Below, piece after piece: positions 946 through 52,115 of a stretch of DNA of 64,000 bases (position 1 is the stretch's first letter; each line of letters opens with the position of its first letter). The DNA is from Alphaproteobacteria bacterium (GTDB lineage: Bacteria; Pseudomonadota; Alphaproteobacteria; Micavibrionales; Micavibrionaceae), in contig JAGNKE010000004.1 of the NCBI GenBank assembly GCA_018000295.1, positions 60,016 to 124,015 of the forward strand. The letters run 5' to 3'. The notes below the pieces were generated by a model, which was not told the DNA's origin, searched no databases, and worked only from the letters and a program-made list of their open reading frames with translations. A program made the position numbers and the translations under genes.

Positions 946-1926
946 TTAACGGGCTTTATCCTTAAAAAACGCCCAAACCTCTTCGGCGGTCTCGAAATCC
1001 TTGTTCTGGCGACCCACGATGAGTAGGAAAAGCGCTCGGTAATGGTGCTTAAGGCTTGGCTCCGTGTGGCCACCGCCAATGACCTTTATCAGAGCCACGG
1101 GCGCTGGCCCGAAATACAAATATTTCCTTGCTGTGGTGCCGTCTTCCGGATCGTGGTCCGAAAAGTCTGTAATGACCGGACGGGGATCGGCACCGTTATT
1201 TATTACCCACCATGCAACGGAATTCTCGACCGACAAAACGGTCCCTCTGTGCTTTTGTTTGGCTTCTTTTGCAACGCGCCCACCTTCGTATGGTAGCAAA
1301 GGATCCTCAGTGCCATTGATAAAAAGTACAGGAACAGGCTTTTTTAAGAATTCACACGCGCTGAATTGAGGCATAGCCGCCGCCACTGGGGAGATCGCAG
1401 CAACTATTTCTGGAGCTTCCAAGGCTACGCGCAGGGACATATGCCCCCCATTGGAAGTTCCGGTTACATAAATTCTTTTGGCATCAACATTTTTCTCACG
1501 GATCAAAGTATGAATGAGCAGTTTGATGAAGCCAAGATCATCGGAATGTGTCTTAGATGATTTGTCCTTACGACAGTCGTTCCAGTCCTTAAATCTACCA
1601 GCGCTGACAAGCCCGTTCGGTATGGCAACGATAAATCTTTCGCGACGGGCCAGGTCCAGCCAGGTACGGTTTGGATTATTATCATTCATAATTTTTTGCA
1701 CACTGCCCGTATAACCGTGAAGGACAATAACGAGTGGACGCTTTGCTTCGATGTTTGGATATGGGTCGTAAAGATCATAGGTGCGCTCGATCCCTCCGGA
1801 AATAAGCCCTATATTATTGGTGTAGTCCTTAAGATCAAACGCACGGACCGGAGGAAAGGCCGTAACTAGGAACAGAAAAAGGCAAAAAACCCCGACCGCG
1901 ACACTTCTGAAAATAAAAGGCTTCAT
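946..1926 (-). CDS. Secreted alpha/beta-hydrolase esterase (PHB-depolymerase/LpqC-like family)
   Basis: The ORF track gives 946..1944. I prefer the Met7 start at 1926, which yields the signal peptide MKPFIFRSVAVGVFCLFLFLVTAFPPVRA. Motifs are VIVLHGYTGS and the nucleophile elbow GTSNGG (GxSxG). GC is visibly lower than in the flanking genes. Confidence 0.7.
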   Translation of the reverse strand: MKPFIFRSVAVGVFCLFLFLVTAFPPVRAFDLKDYTNNIGLISGGIERTYDLYDPYPNIEAKRPLVIVLHGYTGSVQKIMNDNNPNRTWLDLARRERFIVAIPNGLVSAGRFKDWNDCRKDKSSKTHSDDLGFIKLLIHTLIREKNVDAKRIYVTGTSNGGHMSLRVALEAPEIVAAISPVAAAMPQFSACEFLKKPVPVLFINGTEDPLLPYEGGRVAKEAKQKHRGTVLSVENSVAWWVINNGADPRPVITDFSDHDPEDGTTARKYLYFGPAPVALIKVIGGGHTEPSLKHHYRALFLLIVGRQNKDFETAEEVWAFFKDKAR

Positions 1927-1931
1927 GAATT

Positions 1932-2129
1932 CTAGGCGCTCCACATAATCTTGAACTGCTCGGGCTTCAAGACAAGTTGTACGAGAGTGTTTCCGACCCT
2001 GTCCAGAAATTCAACGGTGCAGGAGGGCTCAGGCTGTTCATGGACGGCGACGATAAACCCGTGCTTGCCGCTGACCAACCCGTATTCCGGGAGATCGATC
2101 GAAAGCGTGATGACATCGTCTTTTTTCAT
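1932..2129 (-). CDS. DUF4926-like small protein
   Basis: 65 aa. The pattern D-V-I-T-L..DLPEYGL..G..G.IV....EP...VEFLD..GNT......L...Q matches my memory of the DUF4926 family consensus. Its stop lies 5 nt upstream of the esterase start on the same strand. Confidence 0.55.
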   Translation of the reverse strand: MKKDDVITLSIDLPEYGLVSGKHGFIVAVHEQPEPSCTVEFLDRVGNTLVQLVLKPEQFKIMWSA

Positions 2130-3557: not shown

Positions 3558-3640
3558 GGCTCTTGTCAAAGACAAAAGATGTGATTAAGAGTCATTCTCA
3601 ATAAAGAGTAACTCTTACTATCATCAGGGAGCACAAGTTG

Positions 3641-4765
3641 ATGTACCGCAAAATGACCCTTTTATCCTGTGTTGCCATTACACTCTTCAGCCCGTCTCAG
3701 GCTAAGGCTGAAGGGTACATTCTGCAAAATCTGGTCGCAAACCGGCAGATTTATATGCCCGAAATCGTCGATCCGCAGATGGTCAACGCCTGGGGTCTGG
3801 CGATCCGTCCGGCGGGAGCGGGGGGTCATTTCTGGATCAATAACACCGATACAGGAACGGTCAGCCTTTATGTTGGCGATGTGGGCGGGAAAAAGCTCTT
3901 TCAGGATGATGTCAAGCGGATCACTCTGCCCGCCGCGGACCCGAAGGCCGAGCATTCCACTCCGACGGGGCAGGTCTTTAACGGCGTCGAGACGGAGTTC
4001 GTGGTGACGCATGATGGCATCACCGGCCCCAGCAAGTTCATATTCTGCACCGAAGACGGCACGATCATCGGCTGGACTGAAAAAAAGAATGACGATGGAA
4101 CTTTTATTCGTCCCTCTCATGGCGTGATTGCCGTCGATCAATCTAAGCAGGGAGCGATTTACAAGGGGATAACCGTTTCCGTCAACCGCGAAGGCGGAAA
4201 CCGACTTTATGCGGTGGACTTCGCCAACAACCGCGTCGATATATTCGATTCCTCATTTAAACCTTTGAAGATCGAAGGAGCATTCGCACATCCAGCCGGA
4301 GTTCCCTCCGATCACGCGCCCTTCAACGTGCAGGAGCTGGGCGGTATCCTCTATATAACCTATGCCAGACTGACAAAGGAACCCGGCGAGGAAGAGCAGG
4401 GCACCGGGCTGGGCTATCTTGCGGCCTTTGACTATGAAGGCAAGCTGATCCGCGAGTTCGAGGGCAGAAAAGATCTCGACGCCCCTTGGGGGCTGGCGAT
4501 TGCGACAGCAGACTTCGGTCAGGCGTCCGGCCGTCTGCTGGTCGGGAACTTCGGCAACGGCAAGATCGTGACATTTGATCTGGAAAGCGGCAAGCAGGCA
4601 GGCGTTTTGAAACGGCCAGATGGCAACCCGCTAGAAGTCGAGGGACTTTGGGGCATATTGTTCGGAAATGGTCAAAGCCTTGGCGATGCCAACGCACTCT
4701 ACTACGCCGCCGGCCCTGCCGAAGAAGCGGACGGAGTCTTCGGTAAAATCGTCTGGACTCCCTAA
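3641..4765 (+). CDS. TIGR03118-family secreted beta-propeller-like protein
   Basis: 374 aa counted from the ATG at 3641 (the track starts at the TTG at 3638). The signal peptide ends SQAKA. The motifs NLV....D..MVNAWGLAIRP..GGHFWINN, LYITYA, APWGLAIA..FG...G.LLVGNFGNGKI, GLWGILFGNG and YYAAGP...DGVFGKI match my memory of TIGR03118 proteins. Confidence 0.7.
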   Translation: MYRKMTLLSCVAITLFSPSQAKAEGYILQNLVANRQIYMPEIVDPQMVNAWGLAIRPAGAGGHFWINNTDTGTVSLYVGDVGGKKLFQDDVKRITLPAADPKAEHSTPTGQVFNGVETEFVVTHDGITGPSKFIFCTEDGTIIGWTEKKNDDGTFIRPSHGVIAVDQSKQGAIYKGITVSVNREGGNRLYAVDFANNRVDIFDSSFKPLKIEGAFAHPAGVPSDHAPFNVQELGGILYITYARLTKEPGEEEQGTGLGYLAAFDYEGKLIREFEGRKDLDAPWGLAIATADFGQASGRLLVGNFGNGKIVTFDLESGKQAGVLKRPDGNPLEVEGLWGILFGNGQSLGDANALYYAAGPAEEADGVFGKIVWTP

Positions 4766-5001
4766 AATTATACAGAAAACCCTTGACGGGCAGGTTTTCC
4801 TTCTATAGACCTGCCCGTAGTTTACAAAAACCTGTCAGGGACTGCAGGGGCTGAAGCTTAAAAAGCCTGCACAGATAGGAAGAATAAAAAGCCAATCCTA
4901 ATATCTAAGGCCGCTTTTGTTCTTTCAGACTGATCCCCGCAGGCGGCCAAAAGGCCGCTTTAGTTTTTTGGGAATTTAACTTTGATCGTGGAGACAAAAC
5001 C
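4766..5001 (+). promoter_or_regulatory. rplJ 5' leader with terminator-like hairpin (4941-4970) and a competing upstream pairing partner
   Basis: A GCGGCC-AAAA-GGCCGC hairpin followed by TTTAGTTTTTT lies 30 nt before the rplJ start. A second GGCCGC copy at 4909-4914 could pair with the same GCGGCC. This fits an L10-leader type attenuator. Confidence 0.45.
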
Positions 5002-5520
5002 ATGGGCATGAGCCGGGCAGAAAAGAACGAGGAAATCGTGGCGCTGAACCAGCGCTTTAACGAGGAAGAGCTTGTGGTCGTCACCCAGTATTCCGGTCTA
5101 ACCGTTAAGGAGCTCACCGACCTGCGGAACGAACTCCGCAAGAACGGTGCAAAATTCAAGGTTATTAAAAACCGCCTCGCACAGCGCGCCCTGAAAGGGA
5201 CGAAGTTCGAGAAGCTGGAGGATATGTTCGCCGGCCCGACCGGCATCGCCACCTCAAAAGACCCTGTGGCCGCCGCGAAAGTAACATTTGAATTCGCCAA
5301 GAAAAACCAGAAGCTGATTATCGTTGGCGCGGGCATGGGCGAAACGGTTCTCGATCCCAAGGGCGTGGAAGCGCTGGCCAAACTGCCGAGCCTTGACGAA
5401 ATCCGCTCCAGGCTGGTGGGTCTTCTGGTGGCGGCCCCGACCAAGCTGGCGGGAGTTCTGCAGGCTCCGGCCCGCGATCTGGTAGGTGTAACAAAGGCTT
5501 ACGGCGAGAAACAAGTTTAG
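5002..5520 (+). CDS. rplJ: 50S ribosomal protein uL10
   Basis: 172 aa in the conserved position upstream of rplL, with sequence typical of uL10 (e.g. VVVTQYSGLTVKELTDLR). The start could be Met1 or Met3. Confidence 0.94.
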   Translation: MGMSRAEKNEEIVALNQRFNEEELVVVTQYSGLTVKELTDLRNELRKNGAKFKVIKNRLAQRALKGTKFEKLEDMFAGPTGIATSKDPVAAAKVTFEFAKKNQKLIIVGAGMGETVLDPKGVEALAKLPSLDEIRSRLVGLLVAAPTKLAGVLQAPARDLVGVTKAYGEKQV

Positions 5521-5568
5521 TTTTAATTTTCAGAGAAATGATCAAGTTTAAATTCTAAGGAGGAAAAA

Positions 5569-5946
5569 ATGGCTGCTGATCTGAATAAAATTGTTGAACA
5601 ACTCTCGACCTTGACGGTTCTGGAGGCTGCGGAACTATCCAAGCTTCTCGAAGACAAGTGGGGTGTAACCGCTGCTGCGGCTGCTCCTGTCATGATGGCA
5701 GCGGCCGGACCTGGCGCGGCTCCTGTCGAAGAGAAGGACAGCTTCAATGTCGTTCTCGTTGACGGCGGCGCTAACAAGATCAACGTGATCAAGGAAGTCC
5801 GCGCAATCACCAGCCTCGGCCTGAAAGAAGCCAAGGATCTGGTCGAAGCGGGCGGCAAGACCGTTAAGGAAGGCGTCAAAAAGCCCGAGGCCGAGGAAAT
5901 CAAGAAGAAACTCGAAGCCGCCGGTGCCAAAGTCGAGCTGAAATAA
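5569..5946 (+). CDS. rplL: 50S ribosomal protein bL12
   Basis: 125 aa with an Ala/Pro-rich hinge ([18 protein letters not shown]) and the C-terminal domain KEAKDLVE...[13 protein letters not shown]. Confidence 0.97.
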
Positions 5947-6128
5947 TCTTCGCCTGAAACATCAAGCATTTCCCGCATGACTTTAAGGGTGTGGGAAATG
6001 CTAATATTTCATGGAATGAAGGTTGACAAACAGCAAAACGATGGTCCATATAGCTTACAAAATTTCTGAGACAGACGTGAAACCCGTACGCGTAACGGAT
6101 TCCGCTTTGCGGAAAAACTAGGGATTTG

Positions 6129-6174
6129 AACCTGTTACCCTGATATTGAAGGGGCAACAGGTTGTTTTTGTTTG
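6129..6174 (+). terminator. Attenuator-type hairpin plus T-run in the rplL-rpoB spacer
   Basis: The stem AACCTGTTACCC / GGGGCAACAGGTT (8+3 bp with one mismatch) has a 10-nt loop and is followed by GTTTTTGTTTG. It lies 43 nt before the rpoB start, and a partial terminator is classically found at this position. Confidence 0.55.
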
Positions 6175-6216
6175 CTTGATTAGCAACTTTTGGAATTTTT
6201 TAAAAGGTGAGAAGAA

Positions 6217-9200
6217 ATGAGCGCAGCCAAGACCTCAAGAGCAGTAACGCAGGCCAACGATATCAGCAGCTTTACCGGCCGCAAGAGGATCCGGCGCAAT
6301 TTCGGGCGTATCCGTGAAGTGGCCCAGATGCCTAACCTCATCGAGGTGCAGCGCAATTCCTACGAACTGTTCCTTCAGAAGGACGTTCGTGCCGAAGACC
6401 GTGCACTACGCGGCCTGCAGGAGGTCTTCTCCTCCGTCTTCCCGATCAAGGATTTCAGCGACCGTGCGGAAATCGACTTCGTAAAATTCGAATTCGAAGA
6501 TCCCAAATACGATGTGGATGAGTGTCAGCAGCGGGGGATGACTTACGCCGCCCCACTGCGCGTGACCTTGCGCCTCTCGGTCTTTGATGTGGATCCTGAT
6601 TCGGGCCTCCGTTCGATTCGGGACATCAAGGAGCAGGACGTCTATATGGTCGATATGCCCCAGATGACCAATAACGGAACCTTTGTCGTAAACGGCACGG
6701 AGCGGGTTATCGTCTCCCAGATGCACCGTTCCCCGGGCGTCTTCTTCGACCATGACAACGGCAAGACACACGTTTCCGGTAAATACCTCTTCTCGGCTCG
6801 TGTCATCCCCTACCGCGGCTCATGGCTCGATTTCGAATTCGATGCCAAGGACATCATGTTTGTCCGTATCGACCGTCGCCGCAAGCTGCCATTAACCACT
6901 CTGCTACGCTGTCTGGACAGCGCGGAAACCGAAAAACTCCGCAAAAAAGCGGAAGATAAAGGCGAAGAGCTGGATCCTTTGCTGGTTCAGGGGATGTCCA
7001 ATGAGGAAATCCTGAAGACATTCTACGATGTGATTGTCTACGAACAGGACAAAAAGGGCTGGCGCACGGCTTTCAACCCGGACAGGGTGCGCGGAATCAA
7101 GCTGAATTACGATCTGATCAACGCAAAAACCGGACGCACTGTCGCCAAGGCCGGGGAAAAGATTACCGCACGTGCGGCCAAGAAACTGGCCGAGGCCGGA
7201 TTGGAGGAAGTCCGCGTCGAAAGCGAAAATCTCGTCGGCAACTTCCTCGCCGTTGATATCTTTGACCAAAAAACCGGACTGGTTCTCTTCGAGGCCGGCC
7301 ATGAAATCGCGCAGGAAGATTTTGCCAAACTTGAGGAACTGGGAGTCAGCGAAATTCCTGTTCTGTCCATCGACTTCCTCAATGTTGGACCCTATATCCG
7401 CAATACGCTGCTGGCCGACAAGTGCGACACCCGTGAAGCCGCGCTGGTGGATATCTACCGCGTTATGCGACCCGGCGAACCCCCGACAGTGGAATCCGCC
7501 GAGGCGCTCTTCCAATCGCTCTTCTTCGATGCCGAGCGCTACGACCTGTCGTCCGTCGGTCGCGTCAAAATGAACGCCCGCTTGGATATTCAGGCGGATG
7601 ATCAGTTTCGCGTCCTCAGTAAGGCCGACATTCTGGCGATTGTAAAATACCTCCACGGCCTGAAGGACGGTCGCGGCGAGGTGGACGACATCGACAACCT
7701 CGGCAACCGCCGGGTCCGCTCGGTCGGCGAACTCATGGAAAATCAGATGCGTATTGGTCTTCTCCGCATGGAGCGGGCGATCCGCGAACGGATGTCCTCC
7801 GTGGATATCGACACCTATATGCCCCACGACCTGATCAACTCCAAACCGGCCCAGGCCGCCGTGCGCGAGTTTTTCGGCTCATCCCAGCTTTCCCAGTTTA
7901 TGGATCAGACCAACCCGCTCTCGGAAATCACGCACAAACGCCGCCTCTCCGCCCTTGGCCCCGGTGGTCTGACCCGTGAGCGCGCAGGCTTCGAAGTCCG
8001 TGACGTGCACCCGACCCATTACGGCCGGATATGTCCAATCGAAACGCCCGAAGGCCCGAATATTGGTCTGATCAACTCTCTGGCGACCTTTGCCCGCGTC
8101 AATAAATACGGTTTTATCGAAAGTCCTTACCGCAAGGTCTCCAAGGGCAAAGTAACGGACGAGGTTATTTATATGTCCGCCATGGAGGAAGCCAAGTACG
8201 TCATCGCACAGGCCAACTCCGTGCTCGATAAGTCGGGCAAGTTTGAAAGCGAACTCGTCTCCTGTCGTCAGGCTGGGGAGAACATCATGTCCCAGCCCGA
8301 AACGATCGAATATATTGACGTTTCGCCCAAGCAGATCGTCTCTGTCGCGGCCTCGTTGATCCCGTTCCTGGAGAACGACGACGCGAACCGCGCCCTCATG
8401 GGATCGAACATGATGCGTCAGGCCGTTCCGCTGCTGCGCTCGGCCGCCCCGATCGTCGGCACAGGCATGGAAGCAACAGTTGCGCGGGATTCCGGCGCCG
8501 CCGTCTCTGCCCGCCGCGCCGGTATTGTGACGAAAGTGGACGCGACACGGATCGTCGTTCAGGCAACCGAGTTTGAAAATGCTGACGATCCTGTGGTGGA
8601 TATCTACAAACTCTCCAAATTCCAGCGATCAAACCAGAACACCTGCATCAACCAGCGCCCGCTTGTAAAAGTCGGCGACGAGGTCAAGGCGGGCGATATC
8701 GTGGCGGACGGTCCTTCGACCGACCTCGGCGAACTCGCTCTGGGCCGCAACGTTCTCGTGGCGTTCATGCCTTGGAACGGTTATAACTTCGAGGACTCCA
8801 TCCTCATCTCCGAGCGCATCGTTAGCGACGACGTCTTCACCTCGATCCATATCGAGGAATTCGAGGTCATGGCCCGCGACACCAAGCTGGGAACCGAAGA
8901 AATCACCCGCGACATCCCCAACGTCGGCGAAGAGGCGCTCAAGCACCTTGACGAGGCGGGAATCGTGCACATCGGCGCCGAAGTCGCCCCCGGCGATATT
9001 CTGGTCGGTAAGGTGACACCCAAGGGCGAAAGCCCGATGACACCGGAGGAAAAACTCCTCCGTGCCATTTTCGGCGAGAAAGCTGCGGACGTGAAGGATA
9101 CCTCCCTGCGCCTGCCGCCCGGAGCCATCGGAACAATTGTCGAAGTCCGCGTCTTCAACCGCCGCGGCGTCGATAAGGATGCTCGAGCGCTTTCTATCGA

Positions 9201-10449
9201 GCAAGCCGAAATCGAGCGTCTGGCCAAAGACCGCGACGACGAGCGCCGCATCCTCGAAGATGGCTTCTACGGTCGTCTGGAACAAATGCTGGTCGGGCAG
9301 AAACTGGCCTCGGCTCCCAAGGAAGCCAAACTGAAAAAAGGCGAATCGATCAAGAAAGCCGATCTCGCGGAAATCAAGCGCGGCCTCTGGCGTCTTGTCT
9401 CTGTCGAAAGCGAGAAGCGCATGGCCGAGATTGAGGCTATGACCAAAACCTTCGATGCCGCCGTCGATGATCTCAAGAAACGCTTTGAAAACAAGGTCGA
9501 AAAACTGCAGCGCGGCGATGAACTGCCTCCTGGTGTGATGAAGATGGTCAAAGTCTTCGTGGCTGTAAAACGCAAGATGCAGCCAGGCGACAAGATGGCA
9601 GGACGTCACGGCAATAAGGGTGTGGTCTCCAAGATCATGCCGGCAGAGGACATGCCCTATCTGGATGACGGAACGCCTGTTGACCTCGTTCTGAACCCTC
9701 TGGGCGTGCCCTCGCGGATGAACGTGGGACAGATTCTCGAAACCCATCTGGGTTGGGCGTCCGCAAGCCTCGGCAAGCAGATCGGCCAGATTATCGCGGC
9801 CTTCGAAAACGCCAAAAAGCCGACCGAGCAGGAAATGAAAGACCTGCACGGCAAGCTCAAGGACGTTTACGGCGAACGCGAGTTCAAGGATCGTGTCAGC
9901 CAGCTTGAACAGGGCGACCTGATCGAGATGTGCAAGAACGTCAGCGTCGGTGTGCCGATGGCCACCCCCGTCTTCGACGGCGCACATGAACAGGACATCA
10001 CCGAGTTGCTGCAGAAGGCCGGCCTCGACCGCTCCGGTCAGGTCCGCCTGATCGACGGCCGCACAGGCGAATATTTCCACCGCCCGGTCACAGTCGGCTA
10101 CATGTACATGCTCAAGCTCCATCACCTTGTGGACGACAAGATTCACGCCCGTTCCATCGGGCCGTACTCTCTCGTCACGCAGCAGCCTCTGGGCGGTAAG
10201 GCCCAGTTCGGTGGCCAGCGCTTCGGGGAAATGGAAGTCTGGGCACTTCAGGCCTACGGTGCCGCCTATACGCTGCAGGAGATGCTGACCGTCAAGTCCG
10301 ACGACGTGGCGGGCCGCTCCAAGGTCTACGAGGCGATTGTGCGCGGTGAAGACAACTTCGAAATCGGCATCCCCGAATCCTTCAACGTCCTGACCAAGGA
10401 ACTGAAGGCTCTGGGCCTGAATGTCGATATGAAGCAAACCGCGAAGTAA
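6217..10449 (+). CDS. rpoB: DNA-directed RNA polymerase subunit beta
   Basis: 1410 aa with conserved blocks including [21 protein letters not shown] and [13 protein letters not shown]. Confidence 0.98.
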
Positions 10450-10473
10450 GGGTAAGGGCGCACGGAAAGACTG

Positions 10474-11196
10474 ATGCAAGCGATCGCGACATTCCTGTCT
10501 GCACTCGTTCTGGCGGCGTCCATCGCCGCCGGAGGCTTGTTCCTGCGCGAGGGGATGATCCGCTTCAACGCGCAGCAGGGGGTTGTCTCCGTCAAGGGGC
10601 TGGCGGAAAAGAGCGTGGAGGCCGATCTGGGCGTCTGGCGCATATCCCACAGCGTCAAGGAATGGGACCTTCCTGCCGCTCGCCAGAAGCTGCAGACCAA
10701 CCAGCAGGCGATCGAATCCTTCCTGAAACAGAATGGCTTCGCACCAGAGGAGTACGCCCGCAAGAGCATTTCCCTTTTTCAGGGCCGCGAAGTCACCGCA
10801 CAGGTCGGAGAGGTCCAGGAATACAAGAACACCTTTGAAATGACCCAGACCATTACGGTCCGCAGTCCCAAGGTGCGGGAGATCGAAAAGGCCGCACAGA
10901 ATACCTTCGCCTTGATCGCGCAGGACGTTCTGCTCACCAATTCCGACCCGGTGTATATGTACACCAAACTGAACGAGGTCAAGCCGGACATGATCGCCGA
11001 GGCGACCCGTAACGCACGCGACGCGGCCACTCGCTTCGCGCAGGATTCCAACAGCAAGGTGGGAAAGATTCTTTCCGCCGATCAGGGATGGTTCAATATC
11101 CTCTCCGCATACGGCGACGAGGTGGAAAACGAACAGGCCTCGATCGAGAAAAAGGTGCGCGTAGTAACCACAGTGAATTTCACCCTGGTTGATTAA
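10474..11196 (+). CDS. SIMPL/DUF541-like periplasmic protein (BP26/YggE-like)
   Basis: 240 aa with the N-terminal hydrophobic anchor [24 protein letters not shown]. The architecture is SIMPL-like: V.V.G.AEK.VEADL after the anchor, an AT.NAR..A..FA helix, and the terminal strand [13 protein letters not shown]. It starts 24 nt after the rpoB stop and ends 37 nt before the rpoC start. Confidence 0.65.
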
Positions 11197-11233
11197 AATC
11201 AGGACCAAGACAGAAGAGAAAAGGGCGAAGACG

Positions 11234-15445
<4,212 letters not shown>

Positions 15446-15475
15446 CACCGAATAATAATATGAACTGTATTTCTA

Positions 15476-15503
15476 AGAACCCCGAAAAGGGGTTCTTCTT
15501 TTA
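15476..15503. terminator. Bidirectional intrinsic terminator between convergent rpoC and the membrane-protein gene
   Basis: The stem AGAACCCC / GGGGTTCT has a GAAAA loop and is flanked by T-rich sequence (TCTTTTAT). Confidence 0.75.
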
Positions 15504-17228
15504 TGTGTGTTTACCCATCCTGACTTTGAAGCAAGAATAAAGAAAGAGAAATAGCCAGGCTACTAAGCCTGAAAGAGTGATCAAAGCGCCGACTTGCTCC
15601 TGAGGCAGAGCAGGTATGGAAAAAGACAATGTGTAGGCTCCTGGCGGTAAATTCACAGAAATCTGACCATAGGGCTCAAGAGGGCTTATCACCAAATCTT
15701 TGTGGTTGCCGTCTTCAAACGTAATCTGGGAACGCCAACCGACAAAATTAAATTGCCTCAAGATAAAAACTGTCGGATCTGGTGAATTAACTCGAAAAAC
15801 AATCTGCCTGGGCAAATTCTTCATAATCGTGACCTCGGCAAGAGGGCCGTCAAATCTCCATAGCGGGTACGCAGGCGTCTTTTCGACGAAATCATTGATG
15901 CTAACCCTCATTTCCTTGTTTTTCGGCATAAACTCGCCGGTAAGGATCCTGTTCTTGATACGGTATTCAAAAAACGCCGGGTCAGGATGCCACGAAAGCC
16001 TCACGAAGTTGAAGGTAAACAAACTGAGGGCAAAAAACGCGGCTGATATGAGGCAGAGGCTGTAAAAAGAGGTCAAACGGTCATTCTGTCTACCCGACGG
16101 AGGCATTGAAATAAAAAACGCGATCAAAGAAACGAAAAAAAAGTCCGAAAGCATCAGGAGCCGAAAAGGAAATTGAATTTTCTGTAAAGGTTCAAAAAGA
16201 ACCCAAAAGAAATGAGAAAAGGGCGTCATCAGGAAAAAACAAAAACCGGCAGAAAGCATGAAAGGAAGACCATCTTTGACTCTGCTTTCGTCCGAGTTGA
16301 TAAACAAATAAACAAACAGGGCAAGAGGAACAAAAAACTGAAAGCTGGCGATTGCAAAAAGCAGCGCTCCGTAGTTTTTGAAGACCGGAGGCCATGAAGA
16401 GGGGGGCCACCACAGGAACCATTGCTTGTAGTCATAAAAGGGGCCGCTCCAAAGCACCTGCGAACGCACGGAATCCAGGAGTGTTAAAGCAGGGTAAAGG
16501 TAAATGCCTGCAAGGCACCCGCCAAGAAAAAGACAAAACAGAAAAACGCCAAAGGCCGAAATCTTTTCAATACTACGGTTATGAGCAGTCAAAATACTGC
16601 AGCCCTTCGCAAAAACCAGAAAAGGTGTCACGAAAACGGCGCTGGGCAGGTGGGTGACAAGGAAAAGCGCATAGACTAGTGCCAGTAAGACACCAAGGGC
16701 ATACTTGGGGAAGGGCTGCCGTAAAGAAAGCAAAAACAGCAAGGGAATCCAAGCAAAGGCCGCAAATTCGGCCACGTTATTACGCTCGTAAACATCGATA
16801 AATAAATGGTAGGGCGCGATCATGTAAAGAAAGGCACCGACAACAGAAGCGTACCTTGAACAAAAAGATGAAAGCCAAAAGTAGCAGGTAATGCCTGATA
16901 AAATTAGGAAGAAAGAAACGTTAAAAATTAGAACATGAAGAGTATCAAACTGTTGAAGTCCGACGATATCAATAAAGTAGCTGACGTAATAAATCAGGGG
17001 AGGATAAAAAAACAGATTGGCGCCTCCAAAGCCGTGATTGATATTATGAAGCCACCTTGGGTATAGCTCTCCAGCTTGTACTTGTTCTTTAAATGCTTCA
17101 TAGGCTATGATTTGGTTCTTGTAGTCATCTCCGATGGGAAAACCGTTGAAAAACACAAACCAAAGAGCTCCTAAACCCATCAAGGCGATTAGGAAAAGAT
17201 CAACAAATACAGATCTTCTAATAAGCAA
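15501..17228 (-). CDS. Polytopic membrane protein, GT-C-like glycosyltransferase fold (PTPS-related/YfhO/ArnT-like)
   Basis: 575 aa with many TM segments. The N-terminal motif GDDYKNQI....F..QV.AGELYPRW....N.GFGGANLFFYPPLIYY recalls the membrane PTPS-related family. GC is clearly lower than in rpoC and rpsL. Confidence 0.5.
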   Translation of the reverse strand: MLIRRSVFVDLFLIALMGLGALWFVFFNGFPIGDDYKNQIIAYEAFKEQVQAGELYPRWLHNINHGFGGANLFFYPPLIYYVSYFIDIVGLQQFDTLHVLIFNVSFFLILSGITCYFWLSSFCSRYASVVGAFLYMIAPYHLFIDVYERNNVAEFAAFAWIPLLFLLSLRQPFPKYALGVLLALVYALFLVTHLPSAVFVTPFLVFAKGCSILTAHNRSIEKISAFGVFLFCLFLGGCLAGIYLYPALTLLDSVRSQVLWSGPFYDYKQWFLWWPPSSWPPVFKNYGALLFAIASFQFFVPLALFVYLFINSDESRVKDGLPFMLSAGFCFFLMTPFSHFFWVLFEPLQKIQFPFRLLMLSDFFFVSLIAFFISMPPSGRQNDRLTSFYSLCLISAAFFALSLFTFNFVRLSWHPDPAFFEYRIKNRILTGEFMPKNKEMRVSINDFVEKTPAYPLWRFDGPLAEVTIMKNLPRQIVFRVNSPDPTVFILRQFNFVGWRSQITFEDGNHKDLVISPLEPYGQISVNLPPGAYTLSFSIPALPQEQVGALITLSGLVAWLFLFLYSCFKVRMGKHT

Positions 17229-32625: not shown

Positions 32626-33474
32626 ATGCGTCGCTTGTTGCCACTTATTCCCTTGTGTTTACTGGTTTTCGTCATCTTTGTAGGCCAGGCGCAGGCGCAA
32701 TCCTGCCCCCGCTCCAACCCCGAAACCGAAGTAAAAAAAATAACATTAAAGACCAAATATTACCGCGGAACATCTGCTTGGTACTTAACGGCATGGACCG
32801 GTCACTGGGGCAAGGGTGTTGTCCTTGGGCTTCATACGGGTAAGGACGGAAATGCCCCTTTTTGGGCAGACTATGATGCCAAATTTGAGTTCACGCCTGT
32901 GCGCAACAACCCCAACGCGGTTTGTGTAAGTGTATCAAAAATAAAAATGAAGTTTTACATTCAGCCTGTAGTGCATATCGCATCCGAGTATCCTCAGGAA
33001 AGTTGTGAATTCAGGGAGGTTCTGAGGCATGAAAAAAAACACGTAAAGGTGACAAAGGAATGGCAGAAGGAATTCACCCCGCAGTTGCGTCGGGAGTTGA
33101 GAAGCATAGCTCATAAGATTCCGGCTTCTTCGCCAGTAGGAGAGCGCCAGATCCCGGCAACACAGCAAATGATGATGAACATAATTAAATCTCACCTGGA
33201 AAAATTTATGGAAAAAAAGGCGGTTCCTACCTTAGTTCGTCGCCAAGGAAAAGTTGATGACCCCTTGGAATATAAGTTGGTGCCGGAACGTTGCGAAAAC
33301 TGGCAAGATTACCATATTACAGCCTATGAGCCAGGGTATGAAAAAGATGACTCCGATGATAAGGGGGAGGGAGATGATGGAGACGAAGACGATTCTTCCG
33401 ACGATGACTCAGAATCAGATAATAATGATGATACCGGTGAAATTGGTGACCTTCCGGACTACGGAGCCAACTGA
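32626..33474 (+). CDS. Secreted HExxH protein, putative Zn-metallopeptidase (DUF922/COG5661-like), with a poly-acidic tail
   Basis: 282 aa. The signal peptide ends QAQA. The motif VLRHEKKHV (HExxH) follows a conserved Cys. It is clearly paralogous to the next ORF, and its C-terminal 47 aa are D/E/S-rich. Confidence 0.5.
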   Translation: MRRLLPLIPLCLLVFVIFVGQAQAQSCPRSNPETEVKKITLKTKYYRGTSAWYLTAWTGHWGKGVVLGLHTGKDGNAPFWADYDAKFEFTPVRNNPNAVCVSVSKIKMKFYIQPVVHIASEYPQESCEFREVLRHEKKHVKVTKEWQKEFTPQLRRELRSIAHKIPASSPVGERQIPATQQMMMNIIKSHLEKFMEKKAVPTLVRRQGKVDDPLEYKLVPERCENWQDYHITAYEPGYEKDDSDDKGEGDDGDEDDSSDDDSESDNNDDTGEIGDLPDYGAN

Positions 33475-33491
33475 TTCTTGTCTTTCCTTAA

Positions 33492-34217
33492 ATGCCCAGA
33501 AGTTTTTATAAAACAGTTAGTGCTATAAAAAGAACAGGTGTATTTCTTGTTTACGTACTTCTGATGTCAACATCAGCTAATGCTGGCGAGTTAGTTGACA
33601 AATGTCCTGTTTCACGCCCCGAGACGTTTCTAAAATCAAGGATTGCCGGTGCAGAGGTAACAAAAACAAAATCCGCCGTCGATATGACGGAATGGCAGCT
33701 TGGCCACAGCATGGCTCCAAGTGGTGGTCAGATTCTGGGGTTGGGTGGCGGGGAAATTGAAACTAGCTACAATGCGGAATTCGAAGTCTCTCCCTTCCAG
33801 ACCGGGTATTGCGTAGTTCTTCATGAAATCCGAGCGAAATTCATTGCAAAACCTCAAATACACGTTGCCAGCAATTTCGAGGAGGGGAGTTGCGAATACA
33901 GCGAGGTTCTCTTCCACGAGCAAAAGCACATAGAGGCACTTCGCCTTTTTCACCGAAAGCAGACTAAAAATCTAAGGGCAAAGCTGAGAGAAGTGTCAAA
34001 AGCAATCCCCGCTGTTAAGCCAGTCCCGCAAGAGGAGGTAAAGCGGATACAGAAAAAGCTTCTCCAGTATGTTCAGGTAGAGATGAATGGCTATTTTCAG
34101 GAAATTCTGAAAGAACTTCAGCAAACCCAGCAAAAAATCGACAGTCCCGAGGAATATCAGCGCGTGGCTAAAAAATGCCGGAAATGGGAACAAAAACTCT
34201 CGAAACAGCCGGATTGA
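33492..34217 (+). CDS. Secreted HExxH protein, paralogue of 32626..33474
   Basis: 241 aa with a signal peptide ending ANAGE. It shares these blocks with the upstream ORF: CP.S.PET, A.FE..P, SCE..EVL.HE.KH, IPA..PV and D.P.EY..V...C..W. Confidence 0.5.
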   Translation: MPRSFYKTVSAIKRTGVFLVYVLLMSTSANAGELVDKCPVSRPETFLKSRIAGAEVTKTKSAVDMTEWQLGHSMAPSGGQILGLGGGEIETSYNAEFEVSPFQTGYCVVLHEIRAKFIAKPQIHVASNFEEGSCEYSEVLFHEQKHIEALRLFHRKQTKNLRAKLREVSKAIPAVKPVPQEEVKRIQKKLLQYVQVEMNGYFQEILKELQQTQQKIDSPEEYQRVAKKCRKWEQKLSKQPD

Positions 34218-49748: not shown

Positions 49749-51260
49749 ATGAGTGATTATGCCCCCCCGGTCGAGGAGATGCTGACGATGCTTTTTGATG
49801 TTCACGGCTTCGCGCACCCGGACATCGACCGCGAAACTGCGAAATCCATATTGGAAGAGGCAGCCAAATTGGCGTCCGAAGTGCTGGCTCCCCTCAACCA
49901 TCCCGGCGACAAGGCAGGCGCTAAATTTGACAGCGGAACCGTCACAACCGCCCCCGGCTTTAAGGATGCCTATAAGCAATACTGCGCGGGCGGCTGGAAC
50001 GCCGTGCCCTTCGATCCCGAATATGGCGGCCAGGGGCTGCCATGGGGGCTGGCCTTCTGTATTCAGGAAATGTGGCAGGGCGCGAATATGTCCTTCGGCC
50101 TGTGTCCGCTTCTCAATCAGGGTGCGGTCGAGGCCATTTCGCTCCACGGCTCGCCGGAGCAAAAAAGTAAATACCTTCCCAAACTCATTTCCGGTGAATG
50201 GACCGGGACGATGAATCTGACCGAATCGCAGGCCGGTTCCGACCTCGGCCTCATTCGCACAAAGGCGGAGAAACAGGCGGACGGCACCTATAAAGTTACG
50301 GGTCAGAAAATTTTCATTACCTACGGCGAGCATGATATGGCGGAGAATATCATCCACCTCGTTCTTGCACGTACGCCGGACGCCCCGCCGGATGTCAAAG
50401 GCATCTCGCTCTTTATCGTGCCGAAATTCATGGAGGGCGGCTCTCGCAACGCTGTGCGCTGTATCGGGCTGGAACACAAGCTCGGCATCCACGCATCCCC
50501 GACCTGCACGATGGAATTCGACGGGGCGGTCGGTACACTGATAGGGGAGGAAAATATGGGCCTGAAATATATGTTCACCATGATGAACAACGCCCGCCTC
50601 TCCGTCGGTTTGCAGGGCGTGGCCATCGCCGAACGGGCATACCAGAAAGCGTACGCCTATGCCCATCAACGCGTACAGGGCAAGTCTCCTGTGACGGGCG
50701 AACGCGTGGTCATCGCCGAACACGCTGACGTGCGCCGAATGCTGCAAGAGATGAAGGATCAGATCACCGCAGGGCGGGGGATGACTCTGGAGGCGGCCGT
50801 AGCCTTGGATCAGGCCGCGGCAGGAGATGAGGATGCCCGGAAAAAGGTTGAATTGCTAACCCCGATCGTTAAGGCCTGGTGCACCGATATGGCCTGCGAG
50901 GTCACGTCCACCGCCTTACAAGTCTTCGGCGGCATGGGATACATCGAGGAAACAGGCATCGCCCAGTTATTCCGTGATGCGCGCATCCTTCCCATTTACG
51001 AGGGCACAAACGGCATCCAGGCCGCTGACCTCGTCTTCCGCAAAATCATTCACGATGAGGGGAGGACAGTAAACAATTATCTTGGAAAACTTGAGGGAGT
51101 GGTCAAGGCCGAAGATCTGGAGGAAGTTCGCAAAAAAACAAACGAAATCATAAAATCGGGCTACAACAAAAACACTACATTAACAAGCCTGCTAGCCTAT
51201 CCATACCTAAAAGCGATCAGTAGCCTCTTGGCAAAAAAATACACAAAAAAGCTAGTTTAA
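49749..51260 (+). CDS. Acyl-CoA dehydrogenase (long FadE-like type with N-terminal AcylCoA_DH_N-like segment)
   Basis: 503 aa from MSDYAPPVEEML (the track ORF starts 65 codons earlier). The motifs are LTESQAGSDL, FITYGEHD and IYEGTNGIQAADL. The last ~200 nt become AT-rich. Confidence 0.88.
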   Translation: MSDYAPPVEEMLTMLFDVHGFAHPDIDRETAKSILEEAAKLASEVLAPLNHPGDKAGAKFDSGTVTTAPGFKDAYKQYCAGGWNAVPFDPEYGGQGLPWGLAFCIQEMWQGANMSFGLCPLLNQGAVEAISLHGSPEQKSKYLPKLISGEWTGTMNLTESQAGSDLGLIRTKAEKQADGTYKVTGQKIFITYGEHDMAENIIHLVLARTPDAPPDVKGISLFIVPKFMEGGSRNAVRCIGLEHKLGIHASPTCTMEFDGAVGTLIGEENMGLKYMFTMMNNARLSVGLQGVAIAERAYQKAYAYAHQRVQGKSPVTGERVVIAEHADVRRMLQEMKDQITAGRGMTLEAAVALDQAAAGDEDARKKVELLTPIVKAWCTDMACEVTSTALQVFGGMGYIEETGIAQLFRDARILPIYEGTNGIQAADLVFRKIIHDEGRTVNNYLGKLEGVVKAEDLEEVRKKTNEIIKSGYNKNTTLTSLLAYPYLKAISSLLAKKYTKKLV

Positions 51261-52115
51261 CGTAAAAGTGCGCTGTTCGTTCTGACACTTGCTCATCGTC
51301 ATGCGCGCAAGAGCTCCAGTAGAATTAGAAGAAACTCTGGTTCCCTCAAGACCTTCGAATCCTTTTGCAAATTGATTTGCGTAACATTCACAAAATTTCT
51401 TTACATTCTTGAGATGAAGGGGCAGAAGGGCGGGTTTAGAAATACAGTCCTTATAAAGAAATCCAGCCATCTGAGTGCCATTAAGACAAACGCCTTTAAG
51501 TGTTGATAGAATAGAATCACGACTTGGGAGACGCCCTAATTCCTTTCTCTTAGCAACAAACTCAGAAGCCAAACACTTGCAATCATGGTATATGGGCATA
51601 TAAGCATCAGCTTGACACCACTCAAAGACATAGTTAGCTTCTTTAACCTCCGCCTCTGTGAATTCCTCTCTTTCTTCTCCTTGATCAGAGTTAAGAGCGG
51701 ACTTGTCTTCCGAATTCTTAAGGCACAACGCACGCACATCAGAAAAAACTTGCTTATGAGAAGCCTCATCGCCCCGGGACATTCGTGCAACAAGATACTC
51801 ACCGGCAAGGCATTTACAATCATGTTGCAAACTTAACTGCTCATTATTAGAACAGGCCTTATAAAAACGCTGAGCTTCGTTAATTTGCTGATCGGACGCT
51901 TTGCTGATATCAACAGCATCCTTATGAGATTCAATCGGCTGGCCCGACTGCTCTTCAGTACCAGAATCTGAGCCTGCAGCAGAGTGTTCAAGCACCTGAG
52001 CTTTCTCATCGAAGGCTTGAGAATCATCAGACTCCAACCCCTGACCATAAGCGCTCACGGAAGAAAAAATGGCAAAAGCTACAATAAAAATAAAAACGCG
52101 CACGTCAATTCCCAT
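51252..52115 (-). CDS. Secreted Cys-repeat protein (three ~55-aa 4-Cys repeats)
   Basis: 287 aa with the signal peptide FIFIVAFAIFSSVSAYG. The repeats are FYKAC-x11-HDCKCLAGEYLVAR-x..-ALC, FEWC-x9-HDCKCLASEFVAKR-x..-GVC, and a degenerate third (YKDC...FCECYANQF...SKC). GC is lower than in the core genes. Confidence 0.55.
   Translation of the reverse strand: MGIDVRVFIFIVAFAIFSSVSAYGQGLESDDSQAFDEKAQVLEHSAAGSDSGTEEQSGQPIESHKDAVDISKASDQQINEAQRFYKACSNNEQLSLQHDCKCLAGEYLVARMSRGDEASHKQVFSDVRALCLKNSEDKSALNSDQGEEREEFTEAEVKEANYVFEWCQADAYMPIYHDCKCLASEFVAKRKELGRLPSRDSILSTLKGVCLNGTQMAGFLYKDCISKPALLPLHLKNVKKFCECYANQFAKGFEGLEGTRVSSNSTGALARMTMSKCQNEQRTFTLN

Follow-up and report, generated by a model that had tools for sequence, protein, structure and literature searches.

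In the 64,000-nucleotide stretch of contig JAGNKE010000004.1 from an alphaproteobacterial genome assembly (GCA_018000295.1), hereafter called the window, the RNA polymerase genes rpoB and rpoC are separated by an open reading frame (ORF) encoding a protein of the SIMPL/DUF541 family. Nearly all other bacteria have the two polymerase genes side by side, and they count among the most conserved bacterial gene pairs. According to our analysis, the interval from the rpoB stop codon to the rpoC ATG measures 784 nt and, unlike the canonical contiguous pair, holds a gene of 240 codons that is under selection; it starts with ATG and extends over 723 bp on the plus strand (10474 to 11196). An earlier reading of the DNA that made no use of databases (the sequence-only reading) had put 24 nt between rpoB and the ORF and 37 nt between the ORF and the rpoC ATG, with all three genes on one strand, and this placement is exact. 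The TTG at 11189, which appears in the ORF list as an earlier start of rpoC, was rejected, since all relatives begin with MNELMNLF at the ATG. The locus resembles the canonical rplKAJL-rpoBC operon of Escherichia coli in the order rplK-rplA...rplJ-rplL-rpoB...rpoC, in the use of one strand, and in the terminator that follows rpoC, and it differs from it by the unrelated gene between rpoB and rpoC. Upstream, the genes rplJ and rplL, whose operon normally drives rpoBC, are in place. Known variants in this part of the operon are the fusion of the two genes in Helicobacter and Wolbachia and the split of rpoC into rpoC1 and rpoC2 in cyanobacteria and plastids; a gene inserted at the junction is not known among them.

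Judged by the way in which its sequence has evolved, the SIMPL ORF is a functional, long-conserved protein-coding gene. Among six genomes, the ratio of nonsynonymous to synonymous divergence (dN/dS; Nei-Gojobori method) is 0.06 to 0.16 wherever dS could be estimated (0.8 to 2.5), the other pairs being saturated, and its dN is about two to three times that of rpoB and rpoC for the same genome pairs. Homologues were found at 95%, about 80%, 70 to 72%, 50%, and then about 40% identity. The ORF is intact in all independent assemblies examined except locus L010 (6001 to 6760; metagenome-assembled genome [MAG] HKST-UBA22), where a frameshift lies 11 codons before the usual stop and the tail VTTVNFSLVD, followed by a stop codon, can be read in another frame. 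Because a near-identical protein from ENA, P0008, is intact, this frameshift is most likely an assembly or sequencing error. With purifying selection of this strength, and with an intact twin for the sole frameshifted copy, the proposal that the ORF might be a pseudogene fails.

The gene is also at home in its surroundings. Its GC content (0.578, and 0.76 at third codon positions) resembles the values for rpoB and rpoC. Its codon adaptation index (CAI), computed against a reference set of ribosomal-protein, rpoBC, fusA, and tuf genes, is 0.69, compared with 0.70 for rpoB, 0.72 for rpoC, and 0.56 ± 0.09 for the other genes in the window; its codon usage is thus typical of highly expressed genes. 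No compositional break was seen across the insert, no direct or inverted repeats bracket the gene, and no mobility gene lies in the rpoB-rpoC gap of the window. The protein has no PADLOC match at E ≤ 0.01, no NCBIfam model matches the ORF, and no Rfam family was detected anywhere in the window. The exact protein is already present in NCBI as [quoted passage not shown] (MBK9585703.1 and others), and a protein that is 95% identical, QQS57986.1, is encoded on a contig of 2.77 Mb. The coordinates of the features are collected in Table 1.

Table 1. Features of the rpoB-SIMPL-rpoC locus in window positions, and genes at related loci (locus label before the positions)
Feature	Position	Strand	Evidence or remark
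rplJ	5002-5520	+	ORF; same order and Pfam L10 matches in relatives
rplL	5569-5946	+	ORF; same order and Pfam L7/L12 matches in relatives
rpoB, beta subunit, 1410 aa	6217-10449	+	six Rpb2 Pfam domains; 99% identity to an NCBI MAG RpoB
rpoB-SIMPL spacer, 24 nt	10450-10473	+	Shine-Dalgarno-like GGAAAG at 10464-10469
SIMPL/DUF541 gene, 240 aa, cjSLP-type helix-anchored subfamily	10474-11196	+	Pfam, PDB, AlphaFold, Foldseek, dN/dS
Codons 6-24, single N-terminal hydrophobic helix (membrane anchor or uncleaved signal)	10489-10545	+	Kyte-Doolittle, AlphaFold
11-bp GC-rich hairpin and U-rich tail, inside the helix-coding region	10508-10544	+	terminator scan
SIMPL domain, residues 38-240	10585-11193	+	Pfam match to residues 38-207; conserved motif at residues 163-182
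SIMPL-rpoC spacer, 37 nt	11197-11233	+	3' part (11216-11233) is GAGAAAAGGGCGAAGACG, purine-rich rpoC initiation leader
rpoC, beta' subunit, 1403 aa	ATG 11234, end 15445	+	Rpb1 domains 1-5 above cut-off
Terminator-like hairpin closing the rpoBC unit	15475-15497	+	9-bp stem and T-run; fold z-score -2.0
Called gap ORFs in SIMPL-free relatives	L014:9262-9507; L015:9283-9525; L020:10264-10443		MAGs of two of these relatives labelled Micavibrio sp.
gatCAB-embedded SIMPL genes	L018:2526-3248; L019:261-983; L021:3297-4028

The assignment to the SIMPL/DUF541 family, which the sequence-only reading had proposed, was borne out by a profile search: Pfam SIMPL (PF04402) matches residues 38 to 207 over profile positions 1 to 163 of 205 (E = 2.2e-17; 64.4 bits versus a cut-off of 25.2), and all relatives carry precomputed PF04402 matches. 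In an AlphaFold2 model built from 37 homologues (predicted local distance difference test score, 88.4), the protein of about 26 kDa is predicted to consist of a helix at residues 2 to 33 followed by a two-lobed alpha/beta domain. When this model was compared with PDB by Foldseek, the SIMPL-like protein of Campylobacter jejuni (7c50) was recovered with E = 1e-15 and template modeling (TM) scores of 0.63/0.76 and Brucella BP26 (4hvz) with E = 6e-11, the remaining matches being weak and ferredoxin-like. The single sequence matches 10am, a full-length structure with nine chains named "Periplasmic protein," with E = 6e-25 (query residues 9 to 239 against 10am residues 8 to 230) and 7c50 with E = 9e-24. 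A profile of the family matches 10am with E = 4.6e-64 (positions 7 to 239) and 7c50 with E = 1e-61 but BP26 (4hvz) with only E = 1e-4, and the protein is therefore deemed to belong to the cjSLP-type, helix-anchored subfamily. Across 37 diverse homologues, the columns N167, K170, P171, A177, T178, A181, and A185 are invariant.

With the C. jejuni SIMPL-like protein (7c50/7c51, 10am), the window protein shares a length of about 230 to 240 aa, a single N-terminal hydrophobic helix, full-length collinear homology, and the motif YTKLNDIKPxMIxEATxNAR, although the two are only about 30% identical. Brucella BP26/Omp28 (4hvz) and E. coli YggE belong to the same Pfam family and have the same two-lobed alpha/beta fold, whereas the window protein has an uncharged N terminus, a helix without a clear cleavage site, and about 13% identity in the structural alignment. 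Both BP26 and YggE are made with a cleavable Sec signal peptide and are soluble in the periplasm, where BP26 assembles into large ring-shaped oligomers. To our knowledge, neither is encoded in an RNA polymerase operon.

The N-terminal segment is hydrophobic both by the Kyte-Doolittle scale (19-residue mean of 2.06) and in the AlphaFold model, in agreement with the membrane anchor or signal sequence proposed from the translated ORF. One such segment is found in 108 of about 118 examined sequences of the subfamily, and there is no lipobox Cys. A census of 1.84 billion representative proteins returned 2,389 SIMPL clusters at E ≤ 1e-3, of which only three lie above a plateau of about 40% identity. 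In the accessible literature, no function for the cjSLP-type subfamily was found. In P0017, a predicted protein of 250 aa from a 2.2-kb ENA contig, the C-terminal 40% of a SIMPL protein of the embedded type (85% identity) follows an N-terminal part of unrelated origin (PF26109); it is likely the product of a chimeric contig or of a rearrangement.

The same layout was found in several related genomes. The order rpoB-SIMPL-rpoC is present, besides the window, in L001/L009 (GCA_020638365.1), L002, L003 (a contig of 2.4 Mb), L007, L008, L010, and L011, whose RpoB proteins are 87 to 94% identical; we refer to these as the core group. The independent assemblies with the layout come from NCBI, ENA, JGI, and Logan (L001 to L004, L007, L008, L010, L011, and L016/L017), and contigs of 2.1, 2.4, and 2.77 Mb carry it. 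Since about eight assemblies made independently show the layout, some of them with contigs of megabase size, the junctions are genuine and the misassembly that the sequence-only reading had named as a refutation does not hold. Scans of genome and metagenome loci returned only close relatives.

Two more distant cases were detected. In L004, a contig of 2.1 Mb with RpoB and SIMPL proteins 80% and 50% identical to those of the window, the rpoB-rpoC gap (5679 to 8056) measures 2.4 kb and holds five genes on the same strand, encoding a 95-aa protein without assignment, the SIMPL protein, a NUDIX protein resembling the PADLOC candidate PDC-S07 (E = 1e-16), a GIY-YIG nuclease, and an 89-aa PQ-loop/half-SWEET protein. 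A double hairpin resembling repetitive extragenic palindromic (REP) elements occurs three times, at about 7181 to 7250, 7574 to 7660, and 7953 to 8030, between the last three of these genes and before rpoC. The second case is P0012 (42% identity, low GC), which is also embedded: its contigs of 1.4 kb have the C terminus of RpoB at their start and end with ATGAATGAACTGATGAACCTCTTTGG, which encodes MNELMNLFG. By contrast in position, P0013 (41% identity) is encoded between argS and a dGTPase gene, at a locus that shares no genes with the other loci compared for host placement. As a separate observation, an ORF of roughly 48 aa precedes the SIMPL gene in L016 (at about 162 to 309), its stop codon overlapping the SIMPL start (TAATG); it resembles neither the small gap ORFs of SIMPL-free relatives nor any Pfam family.

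As for the novelty that had been attributed to the arrangement, in full-text literature searches no bacterial rpoB-X-rpoC layout was found described, and to that extent the claim stands; it is weakened by the conservation of the layout in the clade, by the automatic annotation of the gene in NCBI as "SIMPL domain-containing protein," and by a parallel in the gatCAB operon. The protein belongs to a known family and is auto-annotated, and the operon layout is an unusual variant of a near-universal arrangement rather than a new kind of system.

In a neighbor-joining tree of 65 SIMPL proteins, the core group forms one clade with P0011, P0012, and P0013 (193 of 200 bootstraps), within which P0011 and P0013 are sisters (173 of 200) and P0012 branches first. 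Because the first branch is embedded, the embedded position looks ancestral in this SIMPL lineage and the position next to argS looks secondary. The embedded clade is spread over three divergent host lineages. The hosts are a small group of uncultured bacteria, with MAGs from activated sludge and wastewater. By the labels of their records, they are probably Micavibrio-related Alphaproteobacteria, and the RpoB relatives at 81 to 83% identity include MAGs labelled Micavibrio sp. One core locus, L007 (CAZOVG010000011.1), is labelled "Pseudobdellovibrionaceae" (phylum Bdellovibrionota), although its RpoB is 93% identical to that of the window and groups with alphaproteobacterial MAGs; the label reflects the filing of Micavibrio at NCBI and does not indicate a different phylum.

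Relatives without SIMPL in the gap were identified as well. The spacers of L012 (RpoB, 85%) and L013 (84%) are ordinary, with 95 and 36 nt, while L014, L015, and L020 have gaps of 211 to 313 nt in which ORFs of 81, 80, and 59 aa, respectively, were called. The ORFs in these three gaps resemble neither each other nor SIMPL nor any Pfam family, and when the small gap ORFs of L004, L014, L015, and L020 were compared, homology among them was rejected, none being detectable. A hairpin, GGGCTTCTCG...CGAGGAGCCC, with a short T-run behind it lies in the 95-nt spacer of L012 (9315 to 9409) and could act as an attenuator at the rpoB-rpoC junction. In a tree of concatenated RpoB and RpoC, the core clade was recovered in 300 of 300 bootstraps, as was the split between core, L013, and L014 on one side and L004, L015, and L020 on the other, and a grouping of the core with L004 in none of 300. 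Transfer of the rpoB and rpoC flanks into L004 together with the insert was rejected, since there is no local excess of identity.

The subfamily has entered a second essential operon. On three contigs, representing P0016 (L018 and L019) and P0015 (L021), members of a sister SIMPL clade are encoded in the order gatC-gatA-SIMPL-gatB. Between the two genomes, the SIMPL proteins are 60% and the GatA proteins 85% identical. As in the rpoBC case, a conserved gene for a helix-anchored SIMPL protein is packed tightly, in the same orientation, between the genes for two subunits of an essential enzyme; the operon and the hosts are different. The gatA stop codon abuts the SIMPL ATG (0 to 1 nt), and 6 nt separate the SIMPL gene from gatB; these spacers, shorter still than those of the window, suggest translational coupling there. 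Residence of the subfamily in an essential operon is, in light of the gatCAB case, not specific to RNA polymerase.

The signals for expression were inspected from 4500 to 16500 of the window. No sigma-70-like promoter was found in this region by a consensus scan, compared with 4.3 sites expected in shuffled sequence, and strong plus-strand terminators were found only before rplJ (4941) and after rpoC (15475). Neither the rpoB-SIMPL nor the SIMPL-rpoC junction folds better than shuffled sequence, and the gaps of L003 and L004 contain no promoter-like sites and no convincing plus-strand terminators. The sequence-only reading had likewise seen no terminator or obvious promoter around the gene, and the consensus scans agree with it, the only structure being a weak hairpin at 10508 to 10534 inside the ORF. 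Identity at synonymous sites is flat along the ORF (0.48 to 0.81, with a mean of 0.625, and 0.56 to 0.70 in the last 30 codons), which argues against a conserved internal promoter of rpoC or a conserved RNA element. An internal rpoC promoter in 10900 to 11233 was accordingly rejected at the level of consensus sites, given the null scan and the lack of raised synonymous conservation at the 3' end.

Each gene appears to have its own ribosome-binding signal. In relatives, the Shine-Dalgarno sequence of the SIMPL gene reads GGAG, GGAGG, or GGGGAA at the same distance, in spacers of 15 to 32 nt, and the predicted duplexes with the anti-Shine-Dalgarno sequence have energies of -3.9 kcal/mol for SIMPL, -4.8 for rpoB, and -4.6 for rpoC. 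The leader GAGAAAAGGGCGAAGACG in front of rpoC is conserved in all core relatives and a similar motif, AAAAGGG, precedes rpoC in the SIMPL-free L014, so that the insertion seems to have left the initiation region of rpoC intact. A hairpin with a U-rich run recurs 35 to 70 nt from the start of the ORF at five loci, namely in the window, L001, L007, L010, and L004 (where the tail is U7). These hairpins lie in shifted registers, their consensus fold reaches -2.9 kcal/mol, and their z-scores are mostly within those of shuffled sequence; they are probably an incidental by-product of Ala/Gly and Phe-Phe-Leu codons and, less probably, weak or partial attenuators. On these grounds (different registers, weak consensus, mostly no better than shuffles), a conserved intragenic terminator or attenuator at 10508 to 10544 was rejected. 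Because no promoter, convincing terminator, or hidden conserved element was found, read-through cotranscription with rpoBC is the best inference.

Taken together, we consider it likely that the SIMPL gene is a long-resident, functional passenger inside the rplJL-rpoBC operon, which is transcribed by read-through and whose product is anchored in the membrane. RNA polymerase starting from the promoters of rplJ or rplK would read rpoB, the SIMPL gene, and rpoC as one mRNA; ribosomes would start separately at the SIMPL Shine-Dalgarno sequence and a second time at the leader that rpoC has kept from its ancestral state, and the insertion would then neither fuse nor disrupt the synthesis of beta or beta'. 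The N-terminal helix would insert into the inner membrane, the SIMPL domain would most likely lie outside the cytoplasm by analogy with BP26 and YggE, and there it may perform the envelope role of the family. The position in the operon would confer constitutive, growth-rate-coupled, and fairly high expression and would imply no role in transcription. The insertion appears to be old in the SIMPL lineage and may have been lost or moved later in several related hosts, and the sister clade would have moved in a similar manner into gatCAB. The sequence-only reading had gone further and described the protein as expressed stoichiometrically with the polymerase core subunits. This goes too far, as cotranscription does not fix protein ratios and what is observed is an independent Shine-Dalgarno sequence and codon usage of the highly expressed type.

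Several points weigh against the passenger interpretation. The promoter scan covered sigma-70 consensus sites only, the hairpin early in the ORF could reduce read-through, and both cotranscription and the level of expression are deduced from sequence. The genomes bearing SIMPL are not monophyletic in the RpoB-RpoC tree, SIMPL-free genomes lying between them, and the search for SIMPL remnants in the gaps of SIMPL-free relatives returned only noise-level matches, so that a single ancient insertion would have to be followed by three or more clean losses, the alternative being transfer between lineages into the same site. The charges flanking the helix show a weak bias, or in the embedded (core) clade, with no Lys or Arg before it and two after it, a reversed one, and there they do not favor the assumed topology with the N terminus inside and the C terminus outside. 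For this reason, the periplasmic location that had been claimed for the product stands by inference from relatives only and gains no support from the helix charges. Finally, "envelope role" describes a placement and not a mechanism.

Among the alternatives, the ORF might serve mainly as a regulatory spacer, in which an internal promoter, a processing site, or an intragenic attenuator near the 5' end uncouples beta' from beta while the protein is secondary. The recurrence of a GC-rich hairpin with a U-rich run early in the ORF of five loci fits this idea, as does the fact that the E. coli rplJL-rpoBC operon is regulated by attenuation upstream of rpoB. However, the protein is under strong purifying selection throughout, synonymous conservation is flat and reveals no conserved nucleotide element, no promoter-like sites were found, and the hairpins differ in register and mostly do not exceed shuffled controls, so that we regard this explanation as unlikely. 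We hold it to be quite unlikely, too, that the gene has a functional link to RNA polymerase, whether through a cytoplasm-facing SIMPL domain contacting the polymerase or translation machinery or through transertion, by which the membrane insertion of the SIMPL protein during its translation would tether the nascent rpoBC (or, in the sister clade, gatCAB) mRNA and locus to the membrane and the synthesis or assembly of the enzyme localized. Such a link would account for a position retained across deep divergence, with SIMPL identity down to 42%, and for the occurrence of the subfamily inside gatCAB, an information-processing operon, and next to argS; the helix charges fit a cytoplasmic C-terminal domain at least equally well. 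Against it stand the cleavable signal peptides and periplasmic location of BP26 and YggE, the PDB names of 4hvz ("26 kDa periplasmic immunogenic protein") and 10am, close host relatives that manage without SIMPL in the gap, and the lack of a single partner shared by the rpoBC, gatCAB, and argS contexts. A Foldseek likeness to uS10 is weak (TM, 0.2 to 0.5; E about 1e-3) and concerns a generic ferredoxin-like lobe. In its broader form, the idea would be that helix-anchored SIMPL proteins specialize in essential information-processing operons and, by cotranslational membrane insertion or a SIMPL domain that faces the cytoplasm, physically couple the synthesis or assembly of the multi-subunit enzymes to the inner membrane, so that the position would reflect function rather than neutral accident; this strikes us as distinctly improbable.

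The remaining two explanations deny the gene its long residence or its function. A recent horizontal or mobile insertion (island cargo, a defense gene, or a homing element), or a chimera of the assembly, is suggested by the GIY-YIG nuclease, the PDC-S07-like NUDIX gene, and the REP-like repeats in the gap of L004, and by host and SIMPL trees that do not match simply. It is at odds with composition and codon usage indistinguishable from those of rpoB and rpoC, with the absence of flanking repeats and of a PADLOC match, with the presence of the gene at this one site in many independent assemblies, contigs of closed size among them, between which synonymous divergence is saturated, and with rpoB and rpoC flanks that lack the excess similarity indicative of cotransfer; we therefore deem it very unlikely and already largely refuted. 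As for a nonfunctional relic or an annotation artifact in a long spacer, the frameshifted L010 copy is what speaks for it, and that copy has its intact twin. The low dN/dS, the extent of the Pfam match, PDB homologues that align with the whole protein, and the confident fold leave such a relic barely conceivable, the selection analysis having refuted it.

The SIMPL gene is not the only extra gene in this region. In the window, an alpha/beta-hydrolase gene (946 to 1944, minus strand) is inserted between nusG and rplK, a 375-aa protein without a Pfam match is encoded between rplA and rplJ (3638 to 4765, plus strand), and a 575-aa protein without a Pfam match, with a low GC content of 0.44 and a CAI of 0.42, is encoded between rpoC and rpsL (15501 to 17228, minus strand). 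These three are further insertions in the normally compact secE-nusG-rplKAJL-rpoBC-rpsLG cluster. L015 and L020 carry other genes inserted at junctions of this sort, among them two ORFs between rplL and rpoB in L020. Elsewhere in the window, ORFs at 32626 to 34217 and 51252 to 52115 are foreign looking, with low GC (0.44 to 0.47) and low codon adaptation.

The rpoB-rpoC pair is often treated as invariant in gene-order studies, in quality checks of MAGs, and in models of the balance between beta and beta'. An unrelated membrane-protein gene under selection that has been kept there across deeply diverged lineages shows that the junction tolerates an extra cistron, and it provides a natural system for asking how the balance of beta and beta' holds with a gene in between. 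Only a very small branch of the SIMPL family has the embedded layout, and its practical consequences are modest unless the link turns out to be a functional one. The gatA-SIMPL-gatB case suggests that a single, poorly understood subfamily tends repeatedly to ride in essential operons, which would imply constitutive, growth-coupled expression and may thus offer a clue to the function of SIMPL/DUF541 proteins.

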